A stretch of 64,000 nt of DNA, taken from a virus. The notes beneath the pieces are model-generated. The model did not search any database. It was given only the letters and a program-made list of their open reading frames with translations, and was not told the DNA's origin. Shown here one piece after another: positions 3,681 to 57,545 of the stretch. Position numbers and translations under genes: made by a program. The stretch covers positions 125,603 to 189,602 of the IMG/VR virus record IMGVR_UViG_3300027777_000023. One strand, given 5' to 3'. The stretch's first letter is position 1; the number at the start of each line of letters is the position of its first letter.

Positions 3681-3956
3681 ATGTTACTACCCAGCCATAT
3701 AATTAAGCTGGCAAAGTCTCTAGAACTCAAACAGCTTTTAGAGGCTAAAAAAAGGTCAGATAAGAACGACTATAGCGGTAAGAATGAGATATTGAGTGCG
3801 CTGCTCAAAAGGCGCCCAGATCAGTTCAGAGTAGACCAACTACTCAACGATAAGTACGTGGGCATCACGCACAAGCCTTCAGGATTTAAGATACATACAG
3901 CCAGATCGTTGATTCCTACAGGGATCGAGCATAATTATACAAAGACCAAGACCTAG
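3681..3956 (+). CDS. Hypothetical protein with an N-terminal K-x-A motif
   Basis: Clean 91-aa ORF coupled to the upstream stop (TAATATG); begins MLLPSHIIKLAKS. Confidence 0.6.
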   Translation: MLLPSHIIKLAKSLELKQLLEAKKRSDKNDYSGKNEILSALLKRRPDQFRVDQLLNDKYVGITHKPSGFKIHTARSLIPTGIEHNYTKTKT

Positions 3957-3976
3957 TAAACTATCTGCTGATATTG

Positions 3977-3992
3977 TGGTATAATATATTGA
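3977..3992 (+). promoter_or_regulatory. Extended -10 promoter TGGTATAAT
   Basis: TGGTATAATATATTGA, identical to 7569-7584. Confidence 0.55.
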
Positions 3993-4023
3993 GTCTCTTA
4001 TAACCAAGAGACAAAATTTAAAT

Positions 4024-4452
4024 ATGCGATCACTAATACCTAAAAATATTGAGGCAGGTTTTGTTAAAAGTTCGTCTCAGCAAGAGCGAGTACGTGTGGT
4101 GCTACCATACAAAGGTCAATACTTATTAGAGCGTCTGACCAATCCTAATTGGCCAAAAAACATCGGTAAGATGCGTCATATAGGCGGAGGTATTGAGTCT
4201 GGTGAAACACCACAAGAAGCGGCGTCTAGGGAGATGTACGAGGAGCTGGGTGTGCAGATCAATCCAGACCACTTTGTGGCTCTAGGTAAACACGACGGGC
4301 ATCACTATCTAGAGTTGAAGAACCACAATCTTCACCCAGGACAGTTCAATGCTACGGTCGGGTCAGATCCAATTATTACGCTAGAAAAGCAGCATCCATC
4401 AGGCTCCAAATATATGGGGCCTAGTCTGCATCAACTATATAACGGGCGCTAG
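4024..4452 (+). CDS. NUDIX hydrolase
   Basis: Complete Nudix box GGGIESGETPQEAASREMYEELGV. Confidence 0.9.
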   Translation: MRSLIPKNIEAGFVKSSSQQERVRVVLPYKGQYLLERLTNPNWPKNIGKMRHIGGGIESGETPQEAASREMYEELGVQINPDHFVALGKHDGHHYLELKNHNLHPGQFNATVGSDPIITLEKQHPSGSKYMGPSLHQLYNGR

Positions 4453-4457
4453 CCTGG

Positions 4458-4482
4458 AAAGAGGTCCAACCCCTCTTTTTTT
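4458..4482 (+). terminator. Intrinsic terminator
   Basis: AAAGAGG-N7-CCTCTTT followed by a T-tract. Confidence 0.6.
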
Positions 4483-4521
4483 AGCTACTACAAGGCGTCA
4501 AAATAGTATAGTATAGGCTAT

Positions 4522-17235: not shown

Positions 17236-17904
17236 TTAGGATTGCAACGCAGCCAACTGCGCGGTGGTCAACGCCGCACGCTGAGTGGTCGTCAAGGCCG
17301 CCACCTGAGTGGTCGACAATGCAAAGAGCTGTGCCGTAGCAAGGACGCTGAGATCGCTTGTTGTGATAGCTGCAACTTCTGCGGTGCTGAATGCTGCGAT
17401 TGTGCTGGTAGCAAGCGCGACGGCCTGCGTTGTTGTGATCGTGGTGACGTTTTGTTTAGCTACCTGCACTTCTGCATCAGCAGCTGCTACTGTGGAGGAT
17501 GCGAGTACAACTGTGAACAGTTCTCCTTCGCCAGAGTTATCTCCAGTGGTGGAACCTACACGACCTGTGCCGCGCACGTATTCAATAATATAGCTAAGTT
17601 CTACCGTACCAGTGACACCGGTAGGAATTTTTAGCGTGAACGGACTGTTCTTGTCAGAGCCAGGATATACATCAAGAACCGCAGGAGCTTGAGGATCGTG
17701 GGCGACTACAGTTGCACGAATAATGCTCTTGGAAGGAACGTCGCTGAACACGATGGAATCTCCCAACGCATAGTCTGTGGGAGAGATAACTCCATAGGAT
17801 ACCTGAAGCTTTTCATAACGCGAACTCAATAGTCCGCTAATGTCATAGCCGCCGTTTGTGCGGTCCGTATCTACTGCTACTTTTTTTACTTTAATTGTTG
17901 CCAT
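17236..17904 (-). CDS. Probable virion decoration/fibre protein with C-terminal LTTxQxAA repeats
   Basis: Beta-rich N-domain followed by 8-aa repeats (LSTTQVAA LTTTQRAA LTTAQLAA); has its own long leader and terminator. Confidence 0.5.
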   Translation of the reverse strand: MATIKVKKVAVDTDRTNGGYDISGLLSSRYEKLQVSYGVISPTDYALGDSIVFSDVPSKSIIRATVVAHDPQAPAVLDVYPGSDKNSPFTLKIPTGVTGTVELSYIIEYVRGTGRVGSTTGDNSGEGELFTVVLASSTVAAADAEVQVAKQNVTTITTTQAVALATSTIAAFSTAEVAAITTSDLSVLATAQLFALSTTQVAALTTTQRAALTTAQLAALQS

Positions 17905-18015
17905 AATAATTTTCTATTTTTTGTTTGTTGTTTACTGCATATAGCAATAGGCACCCAAGCCGCAACAGGAACTTTTGGTAAATTCCCAGAGGATCGTTGA
18001 TCTACTCCATCGCTA
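17905..18015 (-). promoter_or_regulatory. Structured 5' leader with A/C-rich translation enhancer
   Basis: Closing stem TAGCGAT/ATTGCTA encloses hairpins GGAG..GATC-AAC-GATC..CTCT and GGGAATT-N7-AGTTCCT; the 3' part is shared with leader 49866-49975. Confidence 0.4.
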
Positions 18016-18055
18016 CGTTAATTATTGTCTATAGTTCTAGGTTAGGCAAGACAAA

Positions 18056-18460
18056 TTATATCCATTCTGGGAAAGATACTCGATTTGGTCTGGGCTCAAG
18101 CCGATAGTCAATAAATAGCTCTTCATCTTTTCTTATATCTCTGTTAGCGATTATCTTATGCATTGTTAGCTTCCAATCGCAGTTGGGTTCTCTTGAGTGG
18201 TTGATATAGCTGAACTTGCTATACTTATCGCTAGTGATGCACTCTTCATCATTCAGCATCACGTACGGATTTTTACGAATTTGCTCCTCAGTCAAATCAA
18301 CATATCTTGTTTTGTACCAATCTTTTGGAAACATTCTGTAGTCTATCACTAGATCATCTTTGCTTATGTCTTTTGCAGCAAATAAACCAAACCCAGCCAC
18401 AGGGCTATGTTTCACATAGGTGAAAGGTGCATCATCGTTGTCTATGATTATCTCGTTCAT
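18056..18460 (-). CDS. SET-domain protein-lysine methyltransferase
   Basis: HSPVAGFGLFAAKDI, YINHSREPNC and RDIRKDEELFIDY are SET signature motifs I, III and IV. Confidence 0.9.
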   Translation of the reverse strand: MNEIIIDNDDAPFTYVKHSPVAGFGLFAAKDISKDDLVIDYRMFPKDWYKTRYVDLTEEQIRKNPYVMLNDEECITSDKYSKFSYINHSREPNCDWKLTMHKIIANRDIRKDEELFIDYRLEPRPNRVSFPEWI

Positions 18461-19119
18461 TAGTCTTTAATTAGTAGGCTATAGAGTTTGTCTATCTCGT
18501 CTCCTTTATACTGCACACGATTAGCGTTGTAGATTTGCTCTCCCCATGCAGCTTTAATTGCTCCGTCAGAGATGCCTAGATCATGAAGGATGCCGTACAA
18601 TTTAACCTGAGAATTTCTAATCATTAAGATAAACAACTGTTTGTCAGGAAGAAACAAAATACGACCACTCTGACCTGTACGAGCCTCAGGATTGATATGT
18701 GCTTCAGGGATACCGTCTTGACGAATCCTTGAGTATATTCCAGGAAGAAGTCTTTGCTGATTTACGCTTTCGTATTCTGAGCCATTATAAATAACAGTAT
18801 TATGATTAGTAACATATGGTATGTGAGCTATAGTGGTGCTCTTACTTTCCAGAACTTTACCAGAATTTTTGTGTACCAGGTCTATGGTTCCTTTCAAAGC
18901 TACCGTGAGATCCTTTTTATCTAGTACAGCTTGTTTCTGGTGTGTGGTCGTGATATGAGGCAAATCCATCTTCAGATCTCGTACCTGAAGCTTGTGGTCC
19001 GTTGTTTCGATAGCGTTTATTTTTTTACCGAACGCAGCGACTGCTGTATCAAACAGCATATGCCTCAACTTCTCAGGATCGAAAAACGATCTTGTATTTT
19101 CTGGAGGTTTGCTTTGCAT
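18460..19119 (-). CDS. rpoB: Split RNA polymerase beta subunit, N-terminal fragment
   Basis: IAHIPYVTNHNTVIYNGSEYESVNQQRLLPGIY ~ [33 protein letters not shown]. Confidence 0.85.
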   Translation of the reverse strand: MQSKPPENTRSFFDPEKLRHMLFDTAVAAFGKKINAIETTDHKLQVRDLKMDLPHITTTHQKQAVLDKKDLTVALKGTIDLVHKNSGKVLESKSTTIAHIPYVTNHNTVIYNGSEYESVNQQRLLPGIYSRIRQDGIPEAHINPEARTGQSGRILFLPDKQLFILMIRNSQVKLYGILHDLGISDGAIKAAWGEQIYNANRVQYKGDEIDKLYSLLIKD

Positions 19120-19120
19120 T

Positions 19121-20947
19121 TTAATCTTTTAACAATCTTTCCAAATAGGCTTTGTTTTGCTTGTCCTCGAGCATCTTTTGCATCTCAGGATATTTTGAAG
19201 TAATTTCAACTTCTTTCTCACTGGGTTTGCTTTCTGCCCTACCTTCTTCCTCAGCTTTATCAAGGACCTTGTTGATTGCTCTGGTTTGAATGGCTTTGGA
19301 CACTGCGTCAGCTACTCCCGCCTCTTTGAGAGAAGCAAACTTGGCGTCACTGAGAGAGTTCACATCTCCAAGTCTGTTAAAGAAAGCTGGCGTGCGCCCT
19401 TGTCCTCCTCCACCAACATTGATGTTGATGTTTTGACCTTGTCCTCCTGAGCCACGATTACGATCTCTGGTCATTAGATAGGCTAGTAAGGCGGCACCTC
19501 CAAGAGGAAGCAGATTATTACCCAGCGCATTATCTCCCAACAGTCCTGTACCTACCGCTTTAACGCTATCGTTAGCTTTGCCCAGTGCTCCGGCGACACC
19601 ATGATAAGCCTTGGAAAGTGTATTGTACGCTTCTGGAAAATTATGATGTAATACACCTTTAACGAATCCACGATCAGCTACATCGTGAGTTAAATCAATA
19701 CCGCCACTGACAGTATTGCCTACTATTTTTGCTGCGTCTCCAACAGCGCCCTCAGCTTTAGCGACCACATCACCTACCGGTCCAGGCAGTGTAGTTTTTG
19801 CTTGTTGTTGGTAGTCTGCAGTGCTTGTAGGTATTTTAAATGTTTGGCCCAAGACTGTGACTTCTCTTCCGGGCATAGAAGGATCTTGGGATATTCCTCC
19901 AATATTGAACAACTGTTTGCGTTTTTCTTCATCGGCTGCTTGTTGATTTTGCAACTTTATGGCTTGCTGCAGTCCTGGAGGCAACGCCGTTGAGGTTGGG
20001 GTTGGGGTCGAGGTTGAGGGTGCGGCAACAGTGGTAGTAGGTCTAGTAGGTGCTGTGGGAGTACTCAACGGCTGCTGTGCCTGTGACGAAGTATAAGGAC
20101 TTCTAGGATTAGCGTTAGGGAAAGTTGCAGCCAAGTATTCATTATTTGGGTCAAATGTGGGAAATGTTGGGGGTGTTACTTTGGTGTAACCTTGCCCTGT
20201 CGACCTCAGAGGATCATACCCAGCAGCTGTGGCTTTTGCCTGTGCGGCTTGATTTGCATTGTAGTCGGCCATTTGTCGTTGATACTTTGGAAAGTGATCT
20301 AGAGTAAATTTTCGCGCTTCCTGAAATTTAGCGTTGTGCTGCCTAAAAGCTTCCTTTTTTTCAGCCATAAAATCATCCATTTGCTGTGGATTGCCGGTAC
20401 GCCTCAATGCGTTTTCAGCTTTGCCATAGTAATCAGTTAATTCATTGTCTCGAGCACGAGCGGCAATATCTACACGATTTACAACGTCTCCGTGAGTTCT
20501 TTGTCGAGAAAAAAGGTCAGGACTGTCAAAAAATCCAGTATGTAGTTGGTCTGCGCGCATATCTTCTGGTGGTGCAGTTGGTGATGCAGCTAGAGGCGCA
20601 GTTATAGGCAGGGTTGGTGGTCGGGTTGGAGGTATTTTAACTGCAGTATCTTTTAGCATATCAAGACCCTGATCCATGTAATCTTTTTTCCTCTTAGCCT
20701 CGCGCGTTATTTTGGTTGCAATAGTCTCAGGAGCAACCTGAGCCGCAGGCATAGCCTCTGGTGAGGGAAATGAAGGTTTGGGTATAGCGGTTGGTTCTAA
20801 CGGCGTGGACCATGACGGGACGGCTGAAAATCTGCGCTGCTGCTCACGCTCCCGATCTTCCAACTGTTGGAAATAATCTGGGGATTTTGCTTGTTTTTCA
20901 AGACCATCATTAACGCCTTTTTCAAGTTCAGTAAAATCTAATTGCAT
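19121..20947 (-). CDS. K-x-A motif protein, Pro/Thr-rich with a C-terminal TM segment (putative head cargo)
   Basis: GVNDGLEKQAKS near the N-terminus; LKEAGV; LLPLGGAALLAYLM. Confidence 0.6.
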   Translation of the reverse strand: MQLDFTELEKGVNDGLEKQAKSPDYFQQLEDREREQQRRFSAVPSWSTPLEPTAIPKPSFPSPEAMPAAQVAPETIATKITREAKRKKDYMDQGLDMLKDTAVKIPPTRPPTLPITAPLAASPTAPPEDMRADQLHTGFFDSPDLFSRQRTHGDVVNRVDIAARARDNELTDYYGKAENALRRTGNPQQMDDFMAEKKEAFRQHNAKFQEARKFTLDHFPKYQRQMADYNANQAAQAKATAAGYDPLRSTGQGYTKVTPPTFPTFDPNNEYLAATFPNANPRSPYTSSQAQQPLSTPTAPTRPTTTVAAPSTSTPTPTSTALPPGLQQAIKLQNQQAADEEKRKQLFNIGGISQDPSMPGREVTVLGQTFKIPTSTADYQQQAKTTLPGPVGDVVAKAEGAVGDAAKIVGNTVSGGIDLTHDVADRGFVKGVLHHNFPEAYNTLSKAYHGVAGALGKANDSVKAVGTGLLGDNALGNNLLPLGGAALLAYLMTRDRNRGSGGQGQNININVGGGGQGRTPAFFNRLGDVNSLSDAKFASLKEAGVADAVSKAIQTRAINKVLDKAEEEGRAESKPSEKEVEITSKYPEMQKMLEDKQNKAYLERLLKD

Positions 20948-20948
20948 A

Positions 20949-22220: not shown

Positions 22221-22221
22221 G

Positions 22222-22602
22222 TTAATCTTTCTTTTCTTCTTTTGTACCGTAGATGATAAATACTCTAAAGCTTCCCTGCGGGGTCCAGGTGTCTTTCCAG
22301 AGAGTGATCATATACTTTTTGTTATTCATTAATTCGTTAAGCATGTCCTGATCTTTCTGCTGTTCAGGATCAAGAATGATGTTCTTGAATGTGAACGCAC
22401 TCATGTCTTGCGCTCTGGGACGCTTTTTAATTCCTTTTGCTGTTTCAAAAGCGTCAATGACTGCCTCAGGATCAAATCCTTTGTTGGTTACCTCATTGCG
22501 CACATTGCGAGGCGTGACTGAAGCGAGCAAGTCTGCTGCGCTAGAGCCAAAGTCAAAATGTTCTGTTTCTCTTGGTTCAATTCCTTTGTTAAGTAAGTCC
22601 AT
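22222..22602 (-). CDS. Hypothetical protein
   Basis: 126-aa ORF in a tightly packed operon. Confidence 0.7.
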   Translation of the reverse strand: MDLLNKGIEPRETEHFDFGSSAADLLASVTPRNVRNEVTNKGFDPEAVIDAFETAKGIKKRPRAQDMSAFTFKNIILDPEQQKDQDMLNELMNNKKYMITLWKDTWTPQGSFRVFIIYGTKEEKKD

Positions 22603-23119: not shown

Positions 23120-23122
23120 AAA

Positions 23123-23494: not shown

Positions 23495-23496
23495 AA

Positions 23497-24624: not shown

Positions 24625-24627
24625 ACT

Positions 24628-33856: not shown

Positions 33857-33867
33857 TTGTACATGAT

Positions 33868-40783: not shown

Positions 40784-42274
40784 ATGGACGAGCCAAACAT
40801 TCTCATTAAAACCGCACTCAATGACGCAGTGCAAAAAGTAAATGAAGGGATGACCCCTACAGCTGCTCTGCGTAAAGTTGCTAGCGACCTTGACCTTAAT
40901 CCAAACTATATCCAGCGCACAGGAGAAGCATTGAATGTAGCCTTGCATTACAAGCACTTTAAAACCGCCTCAGACCGTTCCACCGAGTTTGAGATCGCTG
41001 ACATCCCTGCAGCTATTGAAGGAACGTTTCTACGTAGCGAAAAAACAGCTGCAGAGTATGTTTCTGAGGAGTTTTCTGTGGGTGATGCAAGTGCAACTGT
41101 GTTTAACTACAACAGAATGCTGACTAATCCTGTTTACAAGCGGGCTTTTATGGAGATTGCAGGAGCTACTGAAACGCATGACTCCTATCCCGCCACATTT
41201 AATACAGTCTACGAAAAGTCTGCAAATTACATCAAAAAGCTGTCTAAGACGGCTGAAGAAGCAGAGGTAACTAAGGTGGGTGCCGAGATTGAGCTCAATG
41301 AAAAGTTCTCTTCTTTGTGCGATGAATTTAGACGCGATGCTGGTTATAGGACAGCTTTTGAAGAGTTCGAATCTCAGGTCTTCGCCAAGCACGGTTCTGC
41401 ATCTTTACCCTATATCAATCTTCTGCACAAAACGGCTTGTCCTCACGAAGAGCGTGGAGTCCATGACGATGCGTATATGATGTTTGACCAGTGCAAAGAG
41501 GCACAGTGGTTTGATTCTTTAATGCTTGCTGCAACCACAATGGTTGAGTCGGAAAAAAAGGCAGCCGAAGCTCTTGATAACCTTTCGTTTGAAAATAGCT
41601 TTGTTAAGGAATGCCGTATGTTGATGGGTAAAGTGGGGGCTGAAAAAGAAGAATCCGCAGCACATGAAAATGCTGAAACTGCAGAAGAAGAAGCCAAGGA
41701 AGAAAAAACCGAGAACGAGGAAGAAGATCCTGTTCTTGCAGCAATTAAAAAAAAAGCCTCAGTCTCTGAATTAGAGGCAACCGCAAATTATAGCGATGAC
41801 CCTGTGGCAGATAAAGCCATGGAGAAAGAGGCTATATTTGGTAAATTACTGACATTTGGTGGGCTGTTGCAGCACGGCGGAGAAAGCTTTGCAGGTATGA
41901 TGCACCCGCCTGTATCCGAAGCTTTCAATCATCATTTTAGGGCACCAAAAGGACCACCACCCATTAAACCTAACTTGACTCTTGAGAACATGGAGCGCAA
42001 GCTTCTACTTCAAGAGCTAATGATGACAGATCCGATTCTGTCTAAGGTTAATCCAGCTAAAGTAGCTCGGGCGTTTGAACAATTGTTGAGACTCTCACCA
42101 GAAATCTCTAAAGAAAAAGAAGTTGTACGGGCAGAGCTCCGCGCAATGGTATCTTCTCAGGCGTTGAGTAAGTTTGACGCTGAGTTGATGGCTAAGACAG
42201 ATGTAGGTATGCTTAAACGCCGCCTAGCTACGCAAGAATTCAACAGAGGTGAAACGCAAAACTTCAGACTTTAA
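40784..42274 (+). CDS. K-x-A-dense helical protein (putative internal head/core protein)
   Basis: About 13 K-x-A sites, including IKTAL, RKVAS, FKTAS, EKTAA, EKSAN, SKTAE, KKAAE, KKAS, EKEAI. Confidence 0.65.
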   Translation: MDEPNILIKTALNDAVQKVNEGMTPTAALRKVASDLDLNPNYIQRTGEALNVALHYKHFKTASDRSTEFEIADIPAAIEGTFLRSEKTAAEYVSEEFSVGDASATVFNYNRMLTNPVYKRAFMEIAGATETHDSYPATFNTVYEKSANYIKKLSKTAEEAEVTKVGAEIELNEKFSSLCDEFRRDAGYRTAFEEFESQVFAKHGSASLPYINLLHKTACPHEERGVHDDAYMMFDQCKEAQWFDSLMLAATTMVESEKKAAEALDNLSFENSFVKECRMLMGKVGAEKEESAAHENAETAEEEAKEEKTENEEEDPVLAAIKKKASVSELEATANYSDDPVADKAMEKEAIFGKLLTFGGLLQHGGESFAGMMHPPVSEAFNHHFRAPKGPPPIKPNLTLENMERKLLLQELMMTDPILSKVNPAKVARAFEQLLRLSPEISKEKEVVRAELRAMVSSQALSKFDAELMAKTDVGMLKRRLATQEFNRGETQNFRL

Positions 42275-44312: not shown

Positions 44313-46871
44313 ATGTATAAAGGACTTATTAAATTTAGTGCTACAGAAGATTGGAATTGGGATACAGAGCCGGTGCAGCTCTTACACAACTCCAATACAC
44401 TTACAAAGGCTGGCGCAGCTAATGACGAGCTTCGTGCAGAAAAAACAGCAGGTCAGACAGATGCATTGGTTATTGCTCTTGGAGCGTATGAAGGCACAGG
44501 TGCCAACCGCAACGGCGATATCTTTAAAGAGGCTGAATGCCTTAAACACTATAAGACTTTTGTAAAGTCCGGTAGTCGAGGAAAAGACGGTAAACATGAT
44601 GGTCGTGCTTTAAACCGGCATCATAAGAACAAACCAGAAGATCCTAAGTACGGCAACATCAAAGCAGCCGCGTACAACCAGAAAATGAAGCGCATCGAGC
44701 TTGTTATCGGCATGGATAATGACAAATGCGCAGAAGAAATTCAAAAGCTTGCAGAGGGTAAGCAAATTAATGTAAGTATGGCTGCTAAGGTCGCTTATGA
44801 TAAATGTTTTGTTGCAGGTACTCTTGTAGAGACGACTGATGGGCTTATACCTATCGAGAAGCTCTGTGTCGGAGATTTAGTAAAAACACATACAGGTGGC
44901 TGGAAGCCTGTGGTCAGGCTTTTTGAGCGGGAATATATTGGAGATGTGTATACCTTGGAGGCGCGAGGCGTTGCTTTTGATACGGATATGACTGAAGGAC
45001 ACCCAGTATACGTGCTGCGCGAGGAAAAGGTCAGGAACGGTACACTGAATGGGCGAGGAACAGCACGAAGAATAGATCGAGAAAAAATACAATTTACGCC
45101 AGACTGGATTAACATAGAGGATGTTAACGATGGTGATTTTTTACTATACCCGATCCCGTCTTCAGATAACTCGCTAGACTTATCCAGACACGCATATGCT
45201 TTGGGGCTTTATCTTGGAGACGGAGCCATAATATGGTCTCGTGGTAAAGATAACACAAAGCCTTTAGGTTTGTCGTGGACCTTTGATGATAAAGATGTGG
45301 AAATTGTGGACAGGCTTGTGGCGCTGTATCCTGCTGCCAAAAAGTATCATTATTCGGACAAACACTGCTACAGTGTATGTCTGCGCGATAAGGAACTTGC
45401 TCAGCTGGCCTACAGCTATTGTGGTGTGTATAGCTCAGAGAAATTCATACATGTCTCCTTGATAGCCAACGCCACTGTTGAGACTCGTCAACTATTTGTG
45501 GCTGGTTATTTGGACTCGGACGGATCTATAGATGGCGTGAAGCTAAGTGGACGTATTAGTAGTATTAACGTCGATGTGATATATTCTTTGCGACAACTCC
45601 TGCTGTCTTTGGAGATTCCTTGCGGCTGGCAAAAATCACCCACATTTGAATATAACTCAGATAAGCCAACCGGAGAGTACATTCACTCAATACATATCGG
45701 CGCATTTTATTGTGACAAGTACTTCAGCAGCTCTGTAAAAGTTCAAAAATATGGTGGGTTTAAGCCTAAACAGGATAAAGCCTTCATTCATTCAGGTTAC
45801 CTAATTACGCCTGTGCGGGAAATTACAAGCACCACATCGACGCAAACAAAAGTATTCAACGTACAAGTGGAGGACGATGAGTCTTATGTAGTTCACGGAT
45901 TTATTGTACATAACTGTACATGGTGCGGTTATGAGGCTAAGGATGACCGACACAGATGTAAGCATGTTCCTAAAGAATTGGGTGAGATTAATAAGCGTGG
46001 AGAAATGTGCAGCATGGATAACATAGACCCAAAATGGTTCGAGCTTTCCATAGTAGGTCGCCCCGCAGATCGCATCGGCATGTCTTTGAAATTAGCCTCT
46101 GACAACAACTACATCAAAACAGCAAATGATTATCGTGAGCTGTATCCGGGTTTTGTTGCTCCTGATGATGAAGATAACTATTTGAGAATTTCCAAATATG
46201 CTTCAGAAAAACGTTCACTTGTTCGTAAACTAGCAGCTATTGAAAAACACATCGACGGAGTGATTGAAGGCGGACCTAAAAACTCTAAAGATAAGTATTT
46301 GGCCGAGCAGAAAGGTAAGATTAATCATGCTGACGGTATCTCTGAATCCGCAATGGATGAGCTTCGTAAATACGAGCCCTCTAAACTGTTAAAAGCCTTA
46401 GCAGATCACGGAATCGTGTTTTCACCAGAAGACTTTGTGAAATATACTTTTGGGGCTGAATCTTTAAAGAATACTGGAGGTATGGTTGGCAAGATGAAGA
46501 AACACTTGCCGTCTATGTTTTCTGATATTGAAGAAGACGGAGACGATGTAATCAATGATGAGAAGTACGAACCGTCGCATTCAGACATTATGCCGAAAGG
46601 TATCATGAACATTGTGCGTGGACTTATGGATGACCACTCGTTATTTGATAAGCCTTCACATGGCAGAATTATGAGAATCACGATTGTCAAAAAGATGCCG
46701 CACGCTAAACTCAGTGGTAGAAGTCATGAAAAGGAAATGCCTAAAGAGGCAGCAATTAAAGAAATAGCCAAGCAGTATGCTGCCTATAAACTAGCTGCAT
46801 TGAGATATTTAGACTCTCAAGATAAGCTTGATGAAGAGCTAGTATTTAATACTTTGGTACAAAATAGATAA
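44313..46871 (+). CDS. Prohead (capsid maturation) protease with Zn-finger insert, interrupted by an intein
   Basis: LNRHH (candidate His), INVSMAAKVAYDK|CTWCG (candidate Ser; SMxxxVxxDxCxxCG pattern), ELSIVGRPAD; located upstream of scaffold and MCP. Confidence 0.75.
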   Translation: MYKGLIKFSATEDWNWDTEPVQLLHNSNTLTKAGAANDELRAEKTAGQTDALVIALGAYEGTGANRNGDIFKEAECLKHYKTFVKSGSRGKDGKHDGRALNRHHKNKPEDPKYGNIKAAAYNQKMKRIELVIGMDNDKCAEEIQKLAEGKQINVSMAAKVAYDKCFVAGTLVETTDGLIPIEKLCVGDLVKTHTGGWKPVVRLFEREYIGDVYTLEARGVAFDTDMTEGHPVYVLREEKVRNGTLNGRGTARRIDREKIQFTPDWINIEDVNDGDFLLYPIPSSDNSLDLSRHAYALGLYLGDGAIIWSRGKDNTKPLGLSWTFDDKDVEIVDRLVALYPAAKKYHYSDKHCYSVCLRDKELAQLAYSYCGVYSSEKFIHVSLIANATVETRQLFVAGYLDSDGSIDGVKLSGRISSINVDVIYSLRQLLLSLEIPCGWQKSPTFEYNSDKPTGEYIHSIHIGAFYCDKYFSSSVKVQKYGGFKPKQDKAFIHSGYLITPVREITSTTSTQTKVFNVQVEDDESYVVHGFIVHNCTWCGYEAKDDRHRCKHVPKELGEINKRGEMCSMDNIDPKWFELSIVGRPADRIGMSLKLASDNNYIKTANDYRELYPGFVAPDDEDNYLRISKYASEKRSLVRKLAAIEKHIDGVIEGGPKNSKDKYLAEQKGKINHADGISESAMDELRKYEPSKLLKALADHGIVFSPEDFVKYTFGAESLKNTGGMVGKMKKHLPSMFSDIEEDGDDVINDEKYEPSHSDIMPKGIMNIVRGLMDDHSLFDKPSHGRIMRITIVKKMPHAKLSGRSHEKEMPKEAAIKEIAKQYAAYKLAALRYLDSQDKLDEELVFNTLVQNR
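44805..45914 (+). mobile_element. Intein (370 aa) with LAGLIDADG homing endonuclease
   Basis: Starts CFVAGTLVET; block B TEGHPVYV; LGLYLGDG and VAGYLDSDGS; ends VFNVQVEDDESYVVHGFIVHN, followed by Cys+1. Confidence 0.96.
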
Positions 46872-46929: not shown

Positions 46930-47922
46930 ATGCCCGAAAATATTCAACCGCCTGCAGAAGGCAACAACATTGAACAACTTCTTTCGCAGCTTTCTCCGGA
47001 AGAGTTACAGCAGCTGGCCACTGCACTATCTGCCGACATGCAGAACCCTGAGGCTCATGAAGGTGGAGAAAGTGTAGCAGGTCTTGCACAGGCAATCGAA
47101 TCTCACCTAGGGCAGTCTCCTGAGTCCGAAGTGCCGGAAGCTGCACCAGAAAAAGTAGCGGCATTGAATTTTGTTAAGTCTGCCTCCTATATTGAAGGAT
47201 TTCTCAACCACGCACTAGATAACGGTGTTGCTGTGAAGCAGGCAGTAGATCTCTACGACCAGGCACTCAGCAGCACAATCAGCAACTTGAGAAAAGAAGC
47301 AGCAGAGTCCAAGGCAGAAGAAAAGAAAGAATCTAAAAAACACGAAAAGTCAGAAACAATTAAACAAGAAAAGAAAGAACACGAAGCTATGAAACAAGAA
47401 AAAATGGCAGCATACTATGATGGAGTATTTTCTCGGGCACGGGAATATGGGTTTACTGATCGTCAAACAGCGAATCTGCTGAAGGCTGCGGCTGACGGCG
47501 ACGAGACAGCCTTAACAGACGCTTGGGGTCTGGAGCCCAGCGGCACCACCGGCACAAAACTGAACGATCAGCCTCCTATGCCTAACGCTTCTGAAAAGAT
47601 GCAAATGTTGCTGGCTAAGCTTAAAGGACAGGCTGGCGCATTTGGTGGTCAATTATCTGAGATGGCACACAAGGGAATGGATCAGGCTGGCGCATTTGGT
47701 GGTCAATTATCTGAGATGGCACACAAGGGAATGGATCAGGCTTCTGCCCTCGGCCATCAAGGTATGGACTACATTGGTGCGCATCCTGAGCAGGCAGCTA
47801 TTGCAGCGCTCTTGGCTGGGGGTGGCGCGTATGGTGCTCATAAGTTGATGCACCGCAATGATGACAAGGCACAGAAAACAGCTGCCGCAGTAAACTTCCT
47901 AAGAGCTACATTGCCTCGCTAA
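46930..47922 (+). CDS. K-x-A motif protein with a C-terminal TM (scaffold/cargo candidate)
   Basis: EKVAA, VKSAS, RKEAA, EKMAA, LKAAA, QKTAA; AAIAALLAGGGAYG. Confidence 0.65.
   Translation: MPENIQPPAEGNNIEQLLSQLSPEELQQLATALSADMQNPEAHEGGESVAGLAQAIESHLGQSPESEVPEAAPEKVAALNFVKSASYIEGFLNHALDNGVAVKQAVDLYDQALSSTISNLRKEAAESKAEEKKESKKHEKSETIKQEKKEHEAMKQEKMAAYYDGVFSRAREYGFTDRQTANLLKAAADGDETALTDAWGLEPSGTTGTKLNDQPPMPNASEKMQMLLAKLKGQAGAFGGQLSEMAHKGMDQAGAFGGQLSEMAHKGMDQASALGHQGMDYIGAHPEQAAIAALLAGGGAYGAHKLMHRNDDKAQKTAAAVNFLRATLPR
47629..47736 (+). repeat. Perfect 54-nt tandem duplication (QAGAFGGQLSEMAHKGMD x2)
   Basis: 47629-47682 is identical to 47683-47736. Confidence 0.95.
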
Positions 47923-47949: not shown

Positions 47950-48864
47950 ATGGCCAAACTAACAAAACACGCAGAAGTTCTTAATCAATTGCACACGATG
48001 GTTAAGAAGCAGGCTGAAGAAGCCCAAAAGAATATCTCTGGAGCTCCTGGCGGCGACGTCAAATCTGTGAGTGTTGGAGATGAGCACGAGGGACACAACA
48101 AGAATTCCATTGGACCTGAAAACCAGGCACAAGGATACCATCAGAAGCCTTCAGAGGACTCTGCAGAACCTCTTGCGAAAGCCAAAACCGCTAGCGATCT
48201 CGGCACGGAAATTCTCGACATTATACGCAAGCAGGCCGAGGCCCAGACAGGTGTGACCGGCAAGCCAGGTTACGTTAAGTCTGAAAGCGTCGGTGACGAC
48301 CAGGAAAAGGTCGACAAGAATGCTATTAAGCCTGAGAACAACAAGCAGGACTATAGCCAAAAAGCCTCCACAGACGGCTCCAAGCCTCTCGCTAGCGCCA
48401 AGAAGGCGGAAGTTGAAGAATTGGCAGCTAAGGTTGCTTCCTACGAACTCGGACGCCAGTTCTGTGCAGCTCTTTTAAAGTCTGCTGGTGATCGCTTTGA
48501 AGGTGATGAAACTCAGCTTATGAAAGAAGCTGGTCGCCGCGACTTCGATCAGTTGATCGCTCAGGCTGCAGAAAATCTCGAATCTTCCAAAGTTGCTGAA
48601 CACCGGGCTGTAAAGCAGGCTGAATTGGCTGGTGCCACGCACTTCGACGAAATACTAAAGCAGGCAGCTTACCAGGAAACCCTCCAGCAGAATCAGGCGC
48701 TGGCCGCTAAGGTGGCGGAGTACGAAGCTTTCATCAAGGAGGCCCAGGACGAATACTCTGCACAGGCAAACGCATACGCCCAGCAAGAGCAGCAGACAAA
48801 GCTTGCTGAATCTGTTGCGGCAGTTGTTCTCAACAGATTGAAATCTGAGGTTGTCTCAGAATAA
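47950..48864 (+). CDS. Putative capsid scaffold protein
   Basis: Ala/Glu/Gln/Lys-rich coiled coil, 15 K-x-A sites, two ~60-aa internal repeats; lies between protease and MCP. Confidence 0.6.
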   Translation: MAKLTKHAEVLNQLHTMVKKQAEEAQKNISGAPGGDVKSVSVGDEHEGHNKNSIGPENQAQGYHQKPSEDSAEPLAKAKTASDLGTEILDIIRKQAEAQTGVTGKPGYVKSESVGDDQEKVDKNAIKPENNKQDYSQKASTDGSKPLASAKKAEVEELAAKVASYELGRQFCAALLKSAGDRFEGDETQLMKEAGRRDFDQLIAQAAENLESSKVAEHRAVKQAELAGATHFDEILKQAAYQETLQQNQALAAKVAEYEAFIKEAQDEYSAQANAYAQQEQQTKLAESVAAVVLNRLKSEVVSE

Positions 48865-48880: not shown

Positions 48881-49054
48881 ATGCCTGCTGACTCTATAGA
48901 ACAAAACACTGTAGAGCAGCAGGCGCTTCATGCACTGGCGCATTTGAGTGATAAAGACAAGGCCAGTGTTCTCAGTTATATTGAAAGTTTGGTAACTTTA
49001 GAAAAAGTAAAAAATGACCAAAGAAGCTCTACACAAGATCGAGACGTTTGTTAA
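48881..49054 (+). CDS. Small hypothetical protein
   Basis: MPADSIEQ... after AAATT; overlaps the next gene by 41 nt. Confidence 0.45.
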   Translation: MPADSIEQNTVEQQALHALAHLSDKDKASVLSYIESLVTLEKVKNDQRSSTQDRDVC

Positions 49055-49406
49055 GACTGCCTTAGCTGAAATCTCTGATTTGCAGCAGCAGGTAGCTTCA
49101 CAGCAAAATAAGCAGGCGGAAGTCCAACAGCAAAATAGTCGTGAGCTTGACGCTGCACTTAGAAAAGCTGCAGAAGCTATGTATAGCTCTGATTTCATCA
49201 ACGACGAGGATGAAAAAGCCTTGTTTGTTAAGAAAGCCAAAGAAGACAGTAAGTACCTCGCCAAGATTGTTGAGCGTGTGTGTAATGCTTCTGATGTTGC
49301 CTATATGGGTAAGTCTGCTGCCGTAAAATCTTCTGTTCAGACCGACGACCCTGTATTACGTCGCGCGTTTGGTTACAACAGTGCCTATAGTCTTTTAGAC
49401 GAATAA
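49014..49406 (+). CDS. K-x-A motif coiled-coil protein (scaffold-like)
   Basis: MTKEAL, VKTAL, RKAAE, GKSAA. Confidence 0.65.
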   Translation: MTKEALHKIETFVKTALAEISDLQQQVASQQNKQAEVQQQNSRELDAALRKAAEAMYSSDFINDEDEKALFVKKAKEDSKYLAKIVERVCNASDVAYMGKSAAVKSSVQTDDPVLRRAFGYNSAYSLLDE

Positions 49407-49410
49407 TTTT

Positions 49411-49806
49411 ATGGATAAACAAGCATTTGTGAATGGTTTTGTTAAACGTGCCAACGAGCACGGACTTTCAAATGGTCAGGCTTTTGAGCTTTTAAAGGCT
49501 GCTAATGACGGCTTTTTGGGCGGACTAGGTGGGTTGGGTGGTTTAGCTGCTGGAGGCCTTACAGGACTGGCAGCTGCTCACGGCCTAGGTGCAATGGTTG
49601 GAAGTAACTACGCACCGATCAGTGATAAAGATTTAGAGCACGAGATGGCTTACATGGAAGATCCGTCGCTAAGCAAGGCACTTAAGTATGGGTTGATTCC
49701 AGGATATGCTGGATATCGCCAAGCAAAAAATGATCGAGTACAGGCAGCCTATCAGAAGTATAAAGATGAGCACAGACCAGCGGCTCCTCAGCAGCCTCAG
49801 TACTAG
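49411..49806 (+). CDS. Glycine-zipper protein with a GFVKxA leader
   Basis: MDKQAFVNGFVKRANEHGLSNGQAFELLKAAN, then FLGGLGGLGGLAAGGLTGLAAAHGLG. Confidence 0.7.
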   Translation: MDKQAFVNGFVKRANEHGLSNGQAFELLKAANDGFLGGLGGLGGLAAGGLTGLAAAHGLGAMVGSNYAPISDKDLEHEMAYMEDPSLSKALKYGLIPGYAGYRQAKNDRVQAAYQKYKDEHRPAAPQQPQY

Positions 49807-50511: not shown

Positions 50512-51471
50512 ATGGAAAAAATCGCAAATCAAAGAGTGTTCAACGATACGTTCGTTGAAATGGTTAAAGCTGGTGAGGAAAAGAAGGCCGCAGTGAGCGC
50601 GCAGTCTTTCACCCGTAACAAGCTTCGTGAAGAAAGCTTTACAGAAAAGATTCTCACCCCCATCGACATCAGCAATGATGACCTCGACAAGGCTGAAAAT
50701 CCTGAACTGCTCGTTAAGTGGAACGACCGCGAACCCGACACAGCTCCTGCTGTGACGATTCCTCTCGGCGTTGTGCCTGACATGTTCCAGTTTTCTGGTA
50801 CGCGTTATCCTTCCTACTTCACACGTATCACGTCCCCGAAGTACAACAAGGACATCGACAATCTTCGTAGCTATGACTACGACATCCGCGCCATCATGCT
50901 CGAGTTGAGCACAAAGGATATCGCAACAGAAATCGACACACGCTTCATCAGCAAGGTTGACAGCATTATCGGTCCGGTCAATGCCGCTAATCCGCTGAAC
51001 AAGCTTGACCTTCCTCAGAATGTTACCATCAGTGGTGGTGTTACTCGTGAGAACATCGCAGAAGCCTACAAGGTTATCAAGCGTCTCCGCGTTCCCTTTG
51101 GTCCTGCTCAGCCAGACGGCGGAGAAAGCAAAGGCGTGATGCTCATGAACAATGTTACTGCAGACGACTTCGTGAAGATGAGCCGTTCTGAAGTTGGTGG
51201 CGATCTCGCACAGGAAATGTTCATCAATGGTCTTCCTTCCAAGACTCTCTTGGGTGTGAAGCCGATCTACACGATCAAGCGTGATCTCGTACCTGACGGT
51301 GTGATCTACTTGTTCTCGTCTGAAGAATTCTTCGGCAAGTACTATCGTTTGCAGCCACTCACAGTGTTCATGAAGAACGAAGCCTATTTCCTCGAGTACT
51401 TCCAGTACATGAACCTCTCTCTTGCCATCGGCAACGTGAAGGGTGTTGTGAAGGTTGACTTTAATGGCTAA
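50512..51471 (+). CDS. Major capsid protein (HK97/encapsulin-like fold)
   Basis: KLREESFTEKILTP N-arm pattern, YDYDIR, FFGKYY; position in the head operon, followed by a strong terminator. Confidence 0.82.
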   Translation: MEKIANQRVFNDTFVEMVKAGEEKKAAVSAQSFTRNKLREESFTEKILTPIDISNDDLDKAENPELLVKWNDREPDTAPAVTIPLGVVPDMFQFSGTRYPSYFTRITSPKYNKDIDNLRSYDYDIRAIMLELSTKDIATEIDTRFISKVDSIIGPVNAANPLNKLDLPQNVTISGGVTRENIAEAYKVIKRLRVPFGPAQPDGGESKGVMLMNNVTADDFVKMSRSEVGGDLAQEMFINGLPSKTLLGVKPIYTIKRDLVPDGVIYLFSSEEFFGKYYRLQPLTVFMKNEAYFLEYFQYMNLSLAIGNVKGVVKVDFNG

Positions 51472-51493
51472 ACTTAACTAATAGTTAAATAAT

Positions 51494-51519: not shown

Positions 51520-51535
51520 ATTGTGTACAACCGTC

Positions 51536-51564: not shown

Positions 51565-51570
51565 CACTTT

Positions 51571-51873
51571 ATGAATATCGATGCAAGTATTTTAAACGAT
51601 TTTGCTACATTTGTAGAGAAATCCGCAGCTTCGTACGGCAATCAATCGCCTTCAGCAACACCTGATGGGTATAGTCAGACACAAGCCCCAACCACAACTA
51701 AAGTGACTCCTTTGCTGCCTCCTACGGCTCCTAGAGCTGTAACTGTTCCAGGTGTAAACACAGGACAGCAGGCTGTCAGAAATGCTGACACGCCAGACAG
51801 TAGTGTTCCTCCTGCCGCCGCACCAAAACCCGCAACATCTCCAGGGAAACCGTTAAAACCAATCAAATTCTAA
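51571..51873 (+). CDS. Pro/Thr-rich protein with a K-x-A leader
   Basis: FATFVEKSAASY followed by a low-complexity P/T tail. Confidence 0.65.
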   Translation: MNIDASILNDFATFVEKSAASYGNQSPSATPDGYSQTQAPTTTKVTPLLPPTAPRAVTVPGVNTGQQAVRNADTPDSSVPPAAAPKPATSPGKPLKPIKF

Positions 51874-54105: not shown

Positions 54106-54123
54106 AAACCAAACAGAAAATCA

Positions 54124-54152
54124 TTGCAACAGCATACAAATTAAATTAAACT
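54124..54152 (+). promoter_or_regulatory. sigma70-like promoter of the sheath gene
   Basis: TTGCAA-N17-TAAACT. Confidence 0.55.
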
Positions 54153-54192
54153 TAAATAAAGTATAGAAGCATATACACAAAACCAAACCAAT

Positions 54193-57100
54193 ATGTACAT
54201 CACACCTAGAGTCAAGATTCAGCAAGAATTTCTACAAGTCCCGGTTTATGCCGAGTTCCCACTACCTGCGTTTATTATCGGACCTAACTACGCACTTACT
54301 CGCTATAATGTAGAGGGTGAGAAGTTACATACTGCGCTGGGCACCTATAATGGTGCAGCTGTTGGGGGCGGTAATAGCTATATCCCTGCAGAAAATACAG
54401 TCTACGACTTTCCAAATGTTTCTCCCGGTGGTGACGTGGATCACAGCTATACCAAAGTGTACGCTGAGGCGGTTAAGGCTACATATTTCCCACTATCCGC
54501 TATCAGCGAAGCTTTCAGCAACTCTGTTGAATTTGTCACACACCCTGATACAGGTGCCAGGTATCCCAACAAAATTAGATTCACTGACGTGACGTTAAAG
54601 ACTGGTCACGGATACTCGCGTTCCAGCTGCTTCTCTAACCGTGACGTAGCTGTACATGACCTCATTGACATCTCAGACGGAACCAATGTAACCCAGGCCA
54701 GAGTGACAGCTATTAGCGCAGAAACATCCGATATCGACGGTGCCCTCTCTGCTACTGTAGGTGATGTAATTGCAGAAGGTTCCGCTATACTGCCGAGCGT
54801 ACAAGCTCCTCACCCAGGGCAGATCGCTGTAGGTAATGTCTTTACAGTGGCTGCTGTAGACTTCAGTGCTCTCGATGTTGTTGGCAAATATCTAACCATC
54901 AGGCACGCCAAAGACTCTTCAGGAGTATACAAAATTATTTCCTTGGGGGACACTGTACATAAACTTGTGGTAGACCGACCATTCACACAGAGTAGCGCAG
55001 CAGACCGCGCATGGCACATTAACGGTGTATACAACGATATTGGTAATACTCCTTGGGGGTGTGTTGAATATTCTAATTACCCCGATTACACATACACCGC
55101 ACCTTCAGCGAATACTTCGTTCACTGTGGCAAATACATCAACTGCCTATTATGGTTATGCGGCAAAAGGCGTATTGACGGATCGCTACACAGCTACAGTA
55201 ACAACCGGAGGCAATGCGGCATCTGTTAGATTCACCATCACTTCCGAGCAGGGTGTTTTTGCTCCTAAGTACAATGTGGGTCTTGTTGCTGATGTTCTTA
55301 CTATCGACACAGCCAACGACAATGTTCAGCGTCTGGACTTTGCTCGTGGTATTGCCACGGCCACCACATTTGCCGTCGGCGATTCCTGGAATTACACTGT
55401 GGTTGCCGAAGTTGAGCCGGTTAATCCTGTTGCCTCTGGCACATACACAGGTACAACGGACATGGTCTACAAGCTAACTGTCGAGCGCGGTGGAGCATTT
55501 TATGACGGCACCAACGCATCAACTTGTGCCCGGCTGGTAATCACTTCTTCTGATGTGGACACTTCTAGCGTTGTATTACCTAAGCTCGATACAAGCTTTA
55601 AGCTCGGCAGCTTTGGTGCTCGTGCAACTTTTGAAGTTGGTACTGCAGGCGTTGACTCGGGCGAGCTTATTCTGGGAGACATCTATTATGTTCCAGTTAC
55701 TGCTGCGCGTCTTGGCGCATACACTGTGGTCACGCTGTCTGAAGATCTGGCAGAAGCTACGTTCCTTGCAGCTAGCCCCACACTCACCGCTACACTTTCG
55801 GTAGCGCAGGCATCCATTCGCATTCCTGAGGTGGCAGACGCTCTTCTAGACCTCAAAAACTGGACGCAAGAAGACTCCTACATCACGATTAATTCCGACA
55901 TTACCACCTACGACAGTAAGCTCATTGCTGAAGGTGTACCTGCCCGCTTACCAATCACATCTGCCAAGCTGTTTGTGGAACATCGTGACTTGCTGCAGGA
56001 CCACATCGTAGCTATTGACTCGGTCCGTGATCAGGCCGCTGTGCTTCAGAAACTTGGAACAGTCCATCCTGACAATCCTCTGGCGCAAGCTGTTTCTGAC
56101 GCTGTATTGAATTCAGCTAACCAGATTGTATATTTTATTGGTGTAGGCACCAACGATCTAGCAGGTTATACGGAAGCAATTCGAATCTCTGAAAAGAGCG
56201 ATAAAGTTTATAGCTTCGTTCCGCTTACCTTCGATCGCGAAATTCAAGACGCAGTTGTAGGACATGTCAATGCTTACAGTACTCCTGAAGTGGGTCGTTG
56301 GAGAATTGCTTGGTTGGCTGTTGAAGACAAAAAGACCAGCTTCATGTATAACCTTAAGGAAAACGGTGATTCCTTCACTGCTACAGTTACGGACGATCCT
56401 TCAGTTTCCGGCACACAATACCGTTTAGTCTCGGTGGCTGGAGCTAGCTTTATTGATGATGGTGTGCGCCCTAACGACACTGTGAGATTAAACTTCAGGT
56501 CTGACAATGATGGAAATATCACATATGATGAGTACGTCGTTGACCATGTACGGACGAACACATCACTCACCATCACAAAACCTCTAGCTGCTGCAATTAA
56601 CAGCCCTGTGAAGGTTCAAGTTGTTCGTAATTATACAAAATCTGAAAGAGCTAACAATATTGCCCACATCGGTGGAGATTACAATAACCGCCGCGTCCGT
56701 TCTGTGTTCCCCGACACCTACAAGGACAGTACGGGTGTCGTAAAGCAGGGCTACATTGCCGCTGCGGGGTTGGCAGGTTTGAGATCTGGTGTTGTGCCGC
56801 ATCTCGGACTCACAAACTCCCAATTCTACGGAGCTCACGACTTGAGTAAGGTGGTTACTGAGTTCTCCCAGGACGACCTCGACACTATGGCAGAGCAAGG
56901 CATCTGGATCATCTCGCAAGAGGTTGTAGGCGCCACTGCGTATGTAAGACATCAGCTCACCACAGACACCCGCAGCCTGAACACTTCGGAAGATTCGATT
57001 ACTACGAATGTGGACAACATCAGTTATGCACTCAAACATACACTCGCACCGTTCATCGGTCGTTTTAATGTTAACAATGAAAACATCGCCGCTGTCCGCG

Positions 57101-57303
57101 AAGCTATCGTAAAAGAACTTACATACCGCGCTTCCAGTACCCGAGTTGAGCGTGCAGGTAATCAGCTCACTAGCTTTACACCTAAAGACGACATTATTCT
57201 GTTAGAGGCTAACGCTACCTACAAAGATATGATCAATGTGGAGGTCAGGCTCAATGTACCTTACCCCATCAATTACATCAACCTTAAGCTGATTGTTGGT
57301 TAA
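54193..57303 (+). CDS. Contractile tail sheath protein
   Basis: N-terminal YITPRVKIQQEF; C-terminal AAAGLAGLRSG...RHQLTT...SITTNVDNISY...VRLNVPYPINYINLKL. Confidence 0.9.
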   Translation: MYITPRVKIQQEFLQVPVYAEFPLPAFIIGPNYALTRYNVEGEKLHTALGTYNGAAVGGGNSYIPAENTVYDFPNVSPGGDVDHSYTKVYAEAVKATYFPLSAISEAFSNSVEFVTHPDTGARYPNKIRFTDVTLKTGHGYSRSSCFSNRDVAVHDLIDISDGTNVTQARVTAISAETSDIDGALSATVGDVIAEGSAILPSVQAPHPGQIAVGNVFTVAAVDFSALDVVGKYLTIRHAKDSSGVYKIISLGDTVHKLVVDRPFTQSSAADRAWHINGVYNDIGNTPWGCVEYSNYPDYTYTAPSANTSFTVANTSTAYYGYAAKGVLTDRYTATVTTGGNAASVRFTITSEQGVFAPKYNVGLVADVLTIDTANDNVQRLDFARGIATATTFAVGDSWNYTVVAEVEPVNPVASGTYTGTTDMVYKLTVERGGAFYDGTNASTCARLVITSSDVDTSSVVLPKLDTSFKLGSFGARATFEVGTAGVDSGELILGDIYYVPVTAARLGAYTVVTLSEDLAEATFLAASPTLTATLSVAQASIRIPEVADALLDLKNWTQEDSYITINSDITTYDSKLIAEGVPARLPITSAKLFVEHRDLLQDHIVAIDSVRDQAAVLQKLGTVHPDNPLAQAVSDAVLNSANQIVYFIGVGTNDLAGYTEAIRISEKSDKVYSFVPLTFDREIQDAVVGHVNAYSTPEVGRWRIAWLAVEDKKTSFMYNLKENGDSFTATVTDDPSVSGTQYRLVSVAGASFIDDGVRPNDTVRLNFRSDNDGNITYDEYVVDHVRTNTSLTITKPLAAAINSPVKVQVVRNYTKSERANNIAHIGGDYNNRRVRSVFPDTYKDSTGVVKQGYIAAAGLAGLRSGVVPHLGLTNSQFYGAHDLSKVVTEFSQDDLDTMAEQGIWIISQEVVGATAYVRHQLTTDTRSLNTSEDSITTNVDNISYALKHTLAPFIGRFNVNNENIAAVREAIVKELTYRASSTRVERAGNQLTSFTPKDDIILLEANATYKDMINVEVRLNVPYPINYINLKLIVG

Positions 57304-57308
57304 TTTAT

Positions 57309-57545
57309 ATGACTTCATTTGAGCTAGGTTTCATCAAATGCGCGCAAGAACGGGGCCTGCCTAGAGCTCAGGCAGGCTATATTCTACAAAGAGCGATGGA
57401 CCACCCGGCAAGTCGTGAGACGTATATCAAAGAAGCAGAAGAAACAAACTATACTTCGGACGATCTAGACAACCTGTCGTGCCTTGTTGCACTGGCGGCG
57501 TTTGACGAAGAAATGTCGAAATGTAGTGCAACTCTAAACATTTAA
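57309..57545 (+). CDS. Small protein with a GFIKxA leader
   Basis: MTSFELGFIKCAQERGL, YIKEAE. Confidence 0.6.
   Translation: MTSFELGFIKCAQERGLPRAQAGYILQRAMDHPASRETYIKEAEETNYTSDDLDNLSCLVALAAFDEEMSKCSATLNI

Follow-up and report, generated by a model that had tools for sequence, protein, structure and literature searches.

The three-residue motif K-x-A, which recurs through the head genes of an uncultured phage, is probably what the phage's own prohead serine protease, encoded by open reading frame (ORF) 44313-46871, recognises, and is probably cut after the alanine. The DNA analysed (the window) is a 64-kb stretch of IMG/VR record IMGVR_UViG_3300027777_000023, the final part of one 189.6-kb contig whose ends overlap; it contains two RNA polymerase genes, a head module (~33-52 kb) and, further on, tail genes. 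An earlier note on this DNA had proposed K-x-A as both the cleavage site and the packaging code of the head. We compared the window phage with 16 IMG/VR contigs and with the cultured Salmonella phage Arash and Vibrio phages D69, D148 and D181; more remote cultured relatives are phage G and the cluster C mycobacteriophages. The head module was set by position (14 genes) and compared with 88 replication-arm and 31 tail-arm genes. Expected counts derive from each protein's own composition, which the per-protein shuffles also kept. Because the relatives share ancestry, recurrence among them is not made of independent samples; two gene blocks (17236-26463 and genome 116-120 kb) were picked after viewing the data, and their p values are thus optimistic.

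K-x-A in the head module

We found 81 K-x-A in the 14 head-module genes, where 41.2 were expected (p 2.8e-8), placing this pair first of the 400 at that spacing. K and A at spacings of 1 and 3-7 were not enriched in the head module. In contrast, neither the replication arm (87 vs 92 expected) nor the tail arm (49 vs 55 expected) showed an excess. These counts bear out the enrichment by gene class over composition that the earlier note had proposed to check; its description of the motif as pervasive over 3681-57545 was overstated, as the excess is localised mainly to 32978-51873, with a weaker signal at N-termini in 17236-26463 and further signal in genes beyond the window. ORFs 38470, 39596 and 42638 and both RNA polymerase genes have no excess, and the K/A-rich helical proteins of the genome (a 681-aa (amino acid) SbcC-like and a tape-measure-like protein) are not enriched; the latter result and the flat K..A spacings rule out helical periodicity or composition as the source of the motif. 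A DNA-repeat origin is ruled out by the 71 distinct 9-mers among 88 sites and by equal codon use inside and outside the motif. Glutamate motifs of the T4, phiKZ and SPN3US types were at chance in the head proteins (L-x-E, 31 vs 30.9; I-x-E, 13 vs 16.3; A-x-E, 39 vs 37.9). A common promoter motif was looked for upstream of the motif-bearing genes, and none was found.

The motif also lies near N-termini, as the earlier note had claimed for about 20 ORFs: 20 of 64 window genes carry K-x-A within their first 27 residues (8.2 expected), and all of the examples it quoted are present. The fuller form is often hydrophobic-x-K-x-A-(S/A/E). Of 15 head genes, 9 carry hydrophobic-x-K-x-A within their first 27 residues (0.8 expected); in the minus-strand block 17236-26463, 6 of the 10 genes do so (0.4 expected), and at genome 116-120 kb, 4 of 7 (0.3 expected). 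In the 88 replication and 31 tail genes this form was at chance level. The genes that carry the signal, and the tail gene used as a negative control, are as follows.

32978..34278, + strand: pair of small genes flanked by the RNA polymerase genes; their N-terminal sites are conserved
36205..38457, + strand: 750-aa protein, 9 sites; homologue of the Arash virion-listed gp218 (E 2e-11)
40784..42274, + strand: head-module protein, 496 aa, 14 sites
44313..46871, + strand: predicted prohead protease precursor, 852 aa; N-terminal domain of gp21/assemblin fold, split by an intein
46930..47922, + strand: core-like protein, 330 aa, 7 sites; two internal helix-Gly-helix modules (~47173-47283 and ~47398-47490)
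47950..48864, + strand: scaffold-like protein, 304 aa, 15 sites; role suggested by position and composition
49014..49406, + strand: small coiled-coil-like head-module protein, 6 sites
50512..51471, + strand: major capsid protein, phage G gp27-like HK97 fold (profile match to 6wkk, E 2e-4)
50518-50526 and 50581-50589, + strand: capsid sites K3-x-A5 and K24-x-A26
51571..51873, + strand: variable small protein after the capsid gene; N-terminal site kept in relatives
54193..57303, + strand: probable tail sheath, no K-x-A; negative control

Gene by gene, an excess was seen in ORF 47950-48864 (15 vs 4.8 expected; shuffle p 0.0005), ORF 40784-42274 (14 vs 4.8; shuffle p 0.001) and the protease ORF (12 vs 5.5; shuffle p 0.007), and also in ORFs 49014 (6 vs 1.8) and 36205 (9 vs 3.8). 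The earlier count of 15 sites in the scaffold-like protein was reproduced; for ORF 40784-42274 the excess held and the exact number, given as about 13, did not. Similarly reproduced was the absence of K-x-A among the 35 Lys of the 1036-aa sheath-like protein: with 3.5 expected this is weak alone, and 13 homologues, which are not independent, hold 20 against 37 expected. Its Atlas neighbours with Phage_sheath_1/1C (score 0.90-0.91) are a lead only, and Pfam, PHROG and PDB sequence searches with it gave no match. A family search with the scaffold-like protein gave no match either. ORF 40784-42274 has a weak N-terminal likeness to Arash gp220 (E 5e-4) with two sites in register, and in ORF 36205-38457, 7 of 9 sites are kept in all four orthologues. 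The gene with the strongest K-x-A excess of all (genome C1:34486-35547) lies outside the window, far from the head module, and encodes a 353-aa protein with 14 sites against 2.0 expected, and with 15 in each of four relatives.

In alignments of head-protein orthologues, the motif Lys is conserved at 0.81 versus 0.61 for other Lys (p 9e-6) and the motif Ala at 0.82 versus 0.46 for other Ala (p 4e-13); x, at 0.58, equals background. Lys and Ala of K-x-A show no extra conservation in control genes, and column conservation in the minus-strand block reaches only a non-significant trend. K-x-A ranks first among the pairs in each of the 16 related head modules, two of which stand at 27% capsid identity. 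It also ranks first in the head genes of Arash (46 vs 21 expected) and Vibrio phage D69 (51 vs 22 expected), and the other genes of both phages are not enriched. That K and A stay constant while x varies, across such divergence, would be hard to obtain without selection. We conclude that the K-x-A motif is real, selected and head-specific. In the distant relative L017, whose head genes are open only with TAG read as Gln (table 15), the same excess is seen.

The major capsid protein carries the motif only in its first 27 residues, as the earlier note had stated, at K3, K24 and K25. K3-x-A5 is present in 118 and K24-x-A26 in 119 of 120 homologues, with x variable, and both are invariant even at 28% identity; against Arash gp226, to which the capsid protein is 28% identical, the second site is in register. 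In longer capsid N-termini, Tyr, Phe or Leu stands at the place of Met1, two residues ahead of the Lys. Thus, of the cut points foreseen earlier (KIA5 or KKA/KAA26-27), K3-x-A5 and K24-x-A26 are backed by conservation and the overlapping K25 site is not. The gene ahead of the capsid gene (49976-50488, the position of the phage G decoration protein gp26) ends K-L-A-S-stop.

The prohead protease and its candidate sites

ORF 44313-46871, whose start codon was chosen from homologues, lies in the head module ahead of the scaffold and capsid genes. An intein-free homologue matches a PHROG head maturation protease (PHROG 18299, E 3.9e-9). The domain has no match in Pfam, its Atlas neighbours carry S77, S78 and S80 at 0.91-0.93, and PDB sequence searches with protease profiles gave nothing relevant. 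We built a structure model on the intein-free homologue L012 (63% identical), using 118 sequences. This model (predicted local distance difference test, pLDDT, 85.5; confident up to about residue 210) matches T4 gp21 (5jbl) with Z 13.1 and a root-mean-square deviation of 2.9 over 144 residues at 12% identity (Foldseek E 1.5e-4), followed by the proteases of varicella-zoster virus (Z 6.8) and cytomegalovirus (Z 5.5), and it shows the assemblin-type beta-barrel of clan SH. A previous model from 13 sequences (pLDDT 54) had no Foldseek match; VIA-align ranked gp21 first for it (Z 4.8). On this modelling, ORF 44313-46871 encodes a predicted prohead serine protease of the gp21/assemblin fold. One His and two Ser, spaced as expected, are invariant in the 118 homologues; the His and one of the Ser are candidate catalytic residues. 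The features of the precursor are listed below.

44622..44624, + strand: His104, candidate catalytic His (equivalent to H100 of L012, invariant in the 118 homologues)
44775..44777, + strand: Ser155, candidate catalytic Ser (equivalent to S151 of L012, likewise invariant)
44805..45914, + strand: intein, 370 aa, with LAGLIDADG endonuclease (Pfam Hint, LAGLIDADG and intein matches)
46089..46097, + strand: K593-L-A595, candidate release site directly after the protease domain
46116-46124 and 46194-46202, + strand: further extension sites K602-x-A604 and K628-x-A630

The intein is inserted ahead of the first Cys of a CxxC motif and is missing in 14 close homologues. Many protease homologues of 750-900 aa appear to bear inteins, and in one relative (L016:5655-7535) the intein sits at another site than in the window phage. 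Arash gp222 (L018:19845-21320), annotated as 'structural protein', is a homologue of this protease.

The C-terminal extension is helical and holds 6 K-x-A sites. At the K593/A595 site, which falls in a linker where model confidence drops below 50, K and A are kept in at least 90% of the 118 diverse homologues and in 98% of 120 close ones. The earlier note had described sites directly behind the catalytic domain, and these are present; 6 of the 12 sites, which it did not mention, lie before or inside that domain. A second K-x-A conserved in at least 90% of the 118 homologues is located near the protease N-terminus. We found 509 K-x-A in the C-terminal parts of 103 diverse homologues, where 182 were expected, and R-x-A was not enriched there. 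These extension sites give the cleanest logo, with Leu, Ile, Phe or Met at -2 and Ser, Ala or Glu after the Ala (+3). Protein C-termini show no excess of K-x-A, so the cut position cannot be read from them. A cut after Ala is probably several times better favoured than one after Lys, since the T4, SPN3US and herpesvirus sites end with the last position of an a-x-b motif and small residues predominate behind the Ala.

Taking T4, SPN3US and herpesviruses as models, we propose the following sequence of events. The intein would splice out and the prohead assemble, and the protease would then release itself from the C-terminal extension by a cut at A595. Self-cleavage at the N-terminus activates T4 gp21 (PMC9958956), and SPN3US gp245 cleaves itself on the C-terminal side (PMC5694885), in the region that matches the linker with the K593/A595 site. 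The capsid protein would lose its first 26 residues in two cuts, and short leaders would be trimmed off internal proteins. The scaffold and core proteins (47950, 40784, 49014, 46930 and the 353-aa protein at genome 34486, which is likely a degraded core protein) would be broken into short peptides that leave the head: cutting at every K-x-A would leave pieces of at most 59 aa from ORF 47950-48864, and of at most 44-78 residues from scaffold-like proteins. Cutting would be limited to exposed sites.

The strength of the motif appears to follow the protease lineage. In phage G, gp19 (8 K-x-A vs 2.5 expected) and gp21 (7 vs 2.8) are enriched and the capsid protein has no K-x-A; in actinophages the motif is blurred towards K/R-x-A. 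In Dickeya phage AD1 and Alcaligenes phage Afa-NA1, which have a more distant protease homologue, K-x-A is not in excess, and their scaffold-like proteins are instead rich in S-x-S (21 vs 7.4 and 30 vs 12.5). S-x-S in these cultured phages is a candidate for the code used by a sister protease clade. This pattern fits a protease code, on few lineages. In the AD1 and Afa-NA1 proteins (L024:13720-15714; L025:10513-12480), S-x-S often follows Glu or Gln. The PaBG and Aura regions showed no motif in the stretch examined, which left out their scaffold and capsid genes.

A helix-Gly-helix module and candidate cargo

K-x-A alone as a packaging code, the other half of the earlier proposal, is not borne out: replication proteins carry it at chance, about one per gene, and folded domains hold sites not all of which can be cut. 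With at least one in most proteins, bare K-x-A cannot single out cargo. In whole relatives we found a portable helix-Gly-helix module of ~32 residues, with the core GFxKRA and the usual end LLKxA. Across five genomes, 23 proteins start with this module, and their downstream parts form 19 unrelated payload clusters. Most N-terminal copies end in K-x-A or close variants, and internal copies usually have K-x-A ahead of them as well. In the window phage the module starts ORFs 49411 and 57309 and occurs twice inside the core-like ORF 46930-47922; four copies lie at genome C1:116373-119327. The scaffold-like proteins of Arash and D69 show faint module-like repeats (E 0.3-2), a lead only. The window genes concerned are these.

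49411..49806, + strand: candidate cargo; N-terminal module 49411-49503 ending LLKAA, then a Gly-rich hydrophobic stretch
57309..57545, + strand: 78-aa protein after the sheath gene, starting with a diverged module copy
17236..26463, - strand: fast-evolving gene block, six genes with N-terminal hydrophobic-x-K-x-A; weaker candidates for processed cargo

The longer module ending in the motif is the likelier capsid-targeting signal, rather than bare K-x-A. There is about an even chance that head loading would proceed via this module, common to the core protein and unrelated payloads, with the protease then removing it. The module resembles the T4 capsid targeting sequence in being a common N-terminal leader on unrelated proteins that ends in the protease motif; the T4 leader has ~10 residues, whereas the module here has ~32, is helical, follows another consensus and also occurs inside the core protein. 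Gly-rich hydrophobic stretches are found in the motif-bearing proteins 22589, 24628, 42638 and 49411, and would suit ejected membrane-inserting proteins. In block 17236-26463, where two genes have such stretches, the N-terminal sites recur in relatives, and a chance origin of single sites is possible; a viral-contig scan for ORF 22589 gave no match, and its orthologues were taken from whole relatives. In its widest form, the picture is of a widespread clade of large myoviruses with a two-part code, a core-derived docking module plus K-x-A cut after Ala by a gp21-fold protease with herpes-like specificity, releasing variable injected proteins that include Gly-rich membrane-inserting ones; we regard this as a tentative proposal, less likely than not to hold.

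Pfam Rpb1/Rpb2 domains in 28255-31281 and 34278-36128 mark the beta and beta-prime RNA polymerase genes. They are split unlike their cellular counterparts, with the C-terminal part of beta fused to the N-terminal part of beta-prime and the remaining beta-prime separate, and a homing endonuclease gene (31304-32749) lies between them. A Shine-Dalgarno sequence is missing from most of the head and cargo genes listed here, whose starts are AT-rich, and this may be a clue to the host group; the capsid gene carries AGGAG. K-x-A is not in excess in a PhoH-like protein (4522-5340) or a glycosyltransferase (1992-3143).

Alternatives to cleavage and known systems

The earlier proposal that K-x-A is the protease's site is made probable by the gp21 fold, the confinement to head proteins, the conservation, the placement of sites and the replacement by S-x-S. 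Several findings weigh against it. Cleavage has been observed in no member, and the switch to S-x-S rests on two related phages. The window protease itself carries K-A-G at the conserved N-terminal site, and 5 K-x-A sites, several of them highly conserved, lie within the modelled protease domain; the capsid proteins of distant relatives also hold sites in their core. The motif is hence not sufficient for cutting, and either accessibility must decide which in-domain sites are used or these must serve late self-destruction. The orthologues gp218 and gp220-226 appear in the virion table of Arash (PMC10585845; 116 proteins, apparently from a standard tryptic search). The 41 residues missing from its capsid protein gp226 are one 41-aa tryptic peptide, and N-terminal peptides were matched; for gp202, gp226 and gp227 alike, the uncovered part is as long as the longest tryptic peptide. 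Scaffold-like gp223 is covered to 100%, so that, at face value, uncut K-x-A junctions were matched. If real, these matches would argue against complete capsid trimming. However, the table appears inflated, with 100% coverage from 2 peptides, so its matches are probably unfiltered, and the supplement has no peptide list.

The same table is compatible with uncut proteins, and thus with a K-x-A motif that stays uncut and serves docking or structure, as a helical patch joining core proteins, protease extension and capsid N-arm. Many sites lie in predicted helices, conserved ones lie inside the protease fold, and the deposited chain of the phage G capsid protein, which itself lacks K-x-A, lists 280 of 282 residues. 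We consider such a motif improbable: only two residues, two apart, are fixed, and the small residue after Ala completes an extended protease-substrate pattern; sites stand at domain ends and within the first five residues; and neither the SbcC-like and tape-measure-like proteins nor the helix spacings 3, 4 and 7 are enriched. That the motif is cut by a different enzyme, be it a protease of the host or a further peptidase of the phage, appears less probable still. ORF 42638 has a weak PHROG 'peptidase' match (E 2e-4), but it is poorly conserved and the match covers its Gly-rich stretch; moreover, the same motif occurs in phages of Salmonella, Vibrio and unknown hosts, follows the protease clade and brackets the protease's own domain. 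Bare K-x-A is common (12 of 88 replication genes have an N-terminal one, 11.5 expected), and Lys- and Ala-rich coiled coils might yield it by composition or chance. Yet composition-keeping shuffles give half the count, and with the selective conservation and the recurrence in lineages at 27% identity they refute this source for the head module, leaving it a negligible probability overall. Recognition by the phage's own prohead protease thus remains our favoured explanation.

K-x-A as a head-protease specificity was not found in the literature searched. The Arash paper (PMC10585845) and the paper on RNA-polymerase-encoding Caudovirales (mReC; PMC7481178) neither identify the protease nor discuss cleavage; 2025 phage G proteomics used a tryptic search only, with no cleavage data, and the literature on cluster C and Rhodococcus phages held nothing useful. 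The mechanism itself is textbook, and the K-x-A specificity would be the new part. Our analysis names gp222 as the formerly unrecognised protease of a cultured phage, and the code allows head and internal proteins, such as the 353-aa protein, to be picked from unannotated genomes by sequence. The protease family is large: 3132 representatives at 50% clustering match the domain, a count of the domain and not of K-x-A use. If the module works as a targeting tag, capsid loading would have a second type of signal next to the T4 one.

Glutamate precedes the cut in the gp21-like phage proteases that have been characterised (T4, phiKZ, SPN3US), and the motif of T4 gp21 is (L/I)-x-E, versus K-x-A here. 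The closest cultured systems are Arash (OQ632216; PMC10585845) and Vibrio phages D69, D148 and D181, which share with the window phage the gene order, the K-x-A excess, a pair of RNA polymerase genes and homologues of its protease, capsid, sheath-like and gp218-like proteins. Identity to these and to mReC relatives is about 28-36%; the beta and beta-prime genes make the window phage a candidate member of mReC (PMC7481178). Phage G gp19 and the capsid maturation proteases of cluster C mycobacteriophages and Gordonia phages have a homologous domain (E 4e-10 to 1e-4) and a weaker motif signal. T4 gp21 (PMC9958956; 5jbl) is alike in fold, in its gene's place among scaffold and capsid genes, in the many core-protein sites and in the short capsid propeptide; a zinc-ribbon-like insertion, the intein and the long C-terminal extension set the protease here apart. 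SPN3US gp245 and phiKZ gp175 (MEROPS S80) cut after Glu at A-x-E and S/A/G-x-E (PMC5694885, PMC10052503), likewise a three-residue a-x-b motif repeated in propeptides with Ser preferred at P1'; these too are from large myoviruses with their own multisubunit RNA polymerase, and C-terminal protease self-cleavage occurs there. In SPN3US, only about nine proteins are cut and 42 head proteins are left uncut (PMC5694885, PMC10052503). Herpesvirus assemblin, with its protease-scaffold precursor (PMC4498786), shares the fold, a release site behind the protease domain and the cut predicted here, after Ala and before a small residue; its sites (YLQA-T, VQA-S) have a hydrophobic residue two ahead of Ala, where the phage has Lys, with the hydrophobic residue two further upstream. 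If true, K-x-A would be a new specificity for the gp21 fold, closer to that of herpesvirus assemblin.

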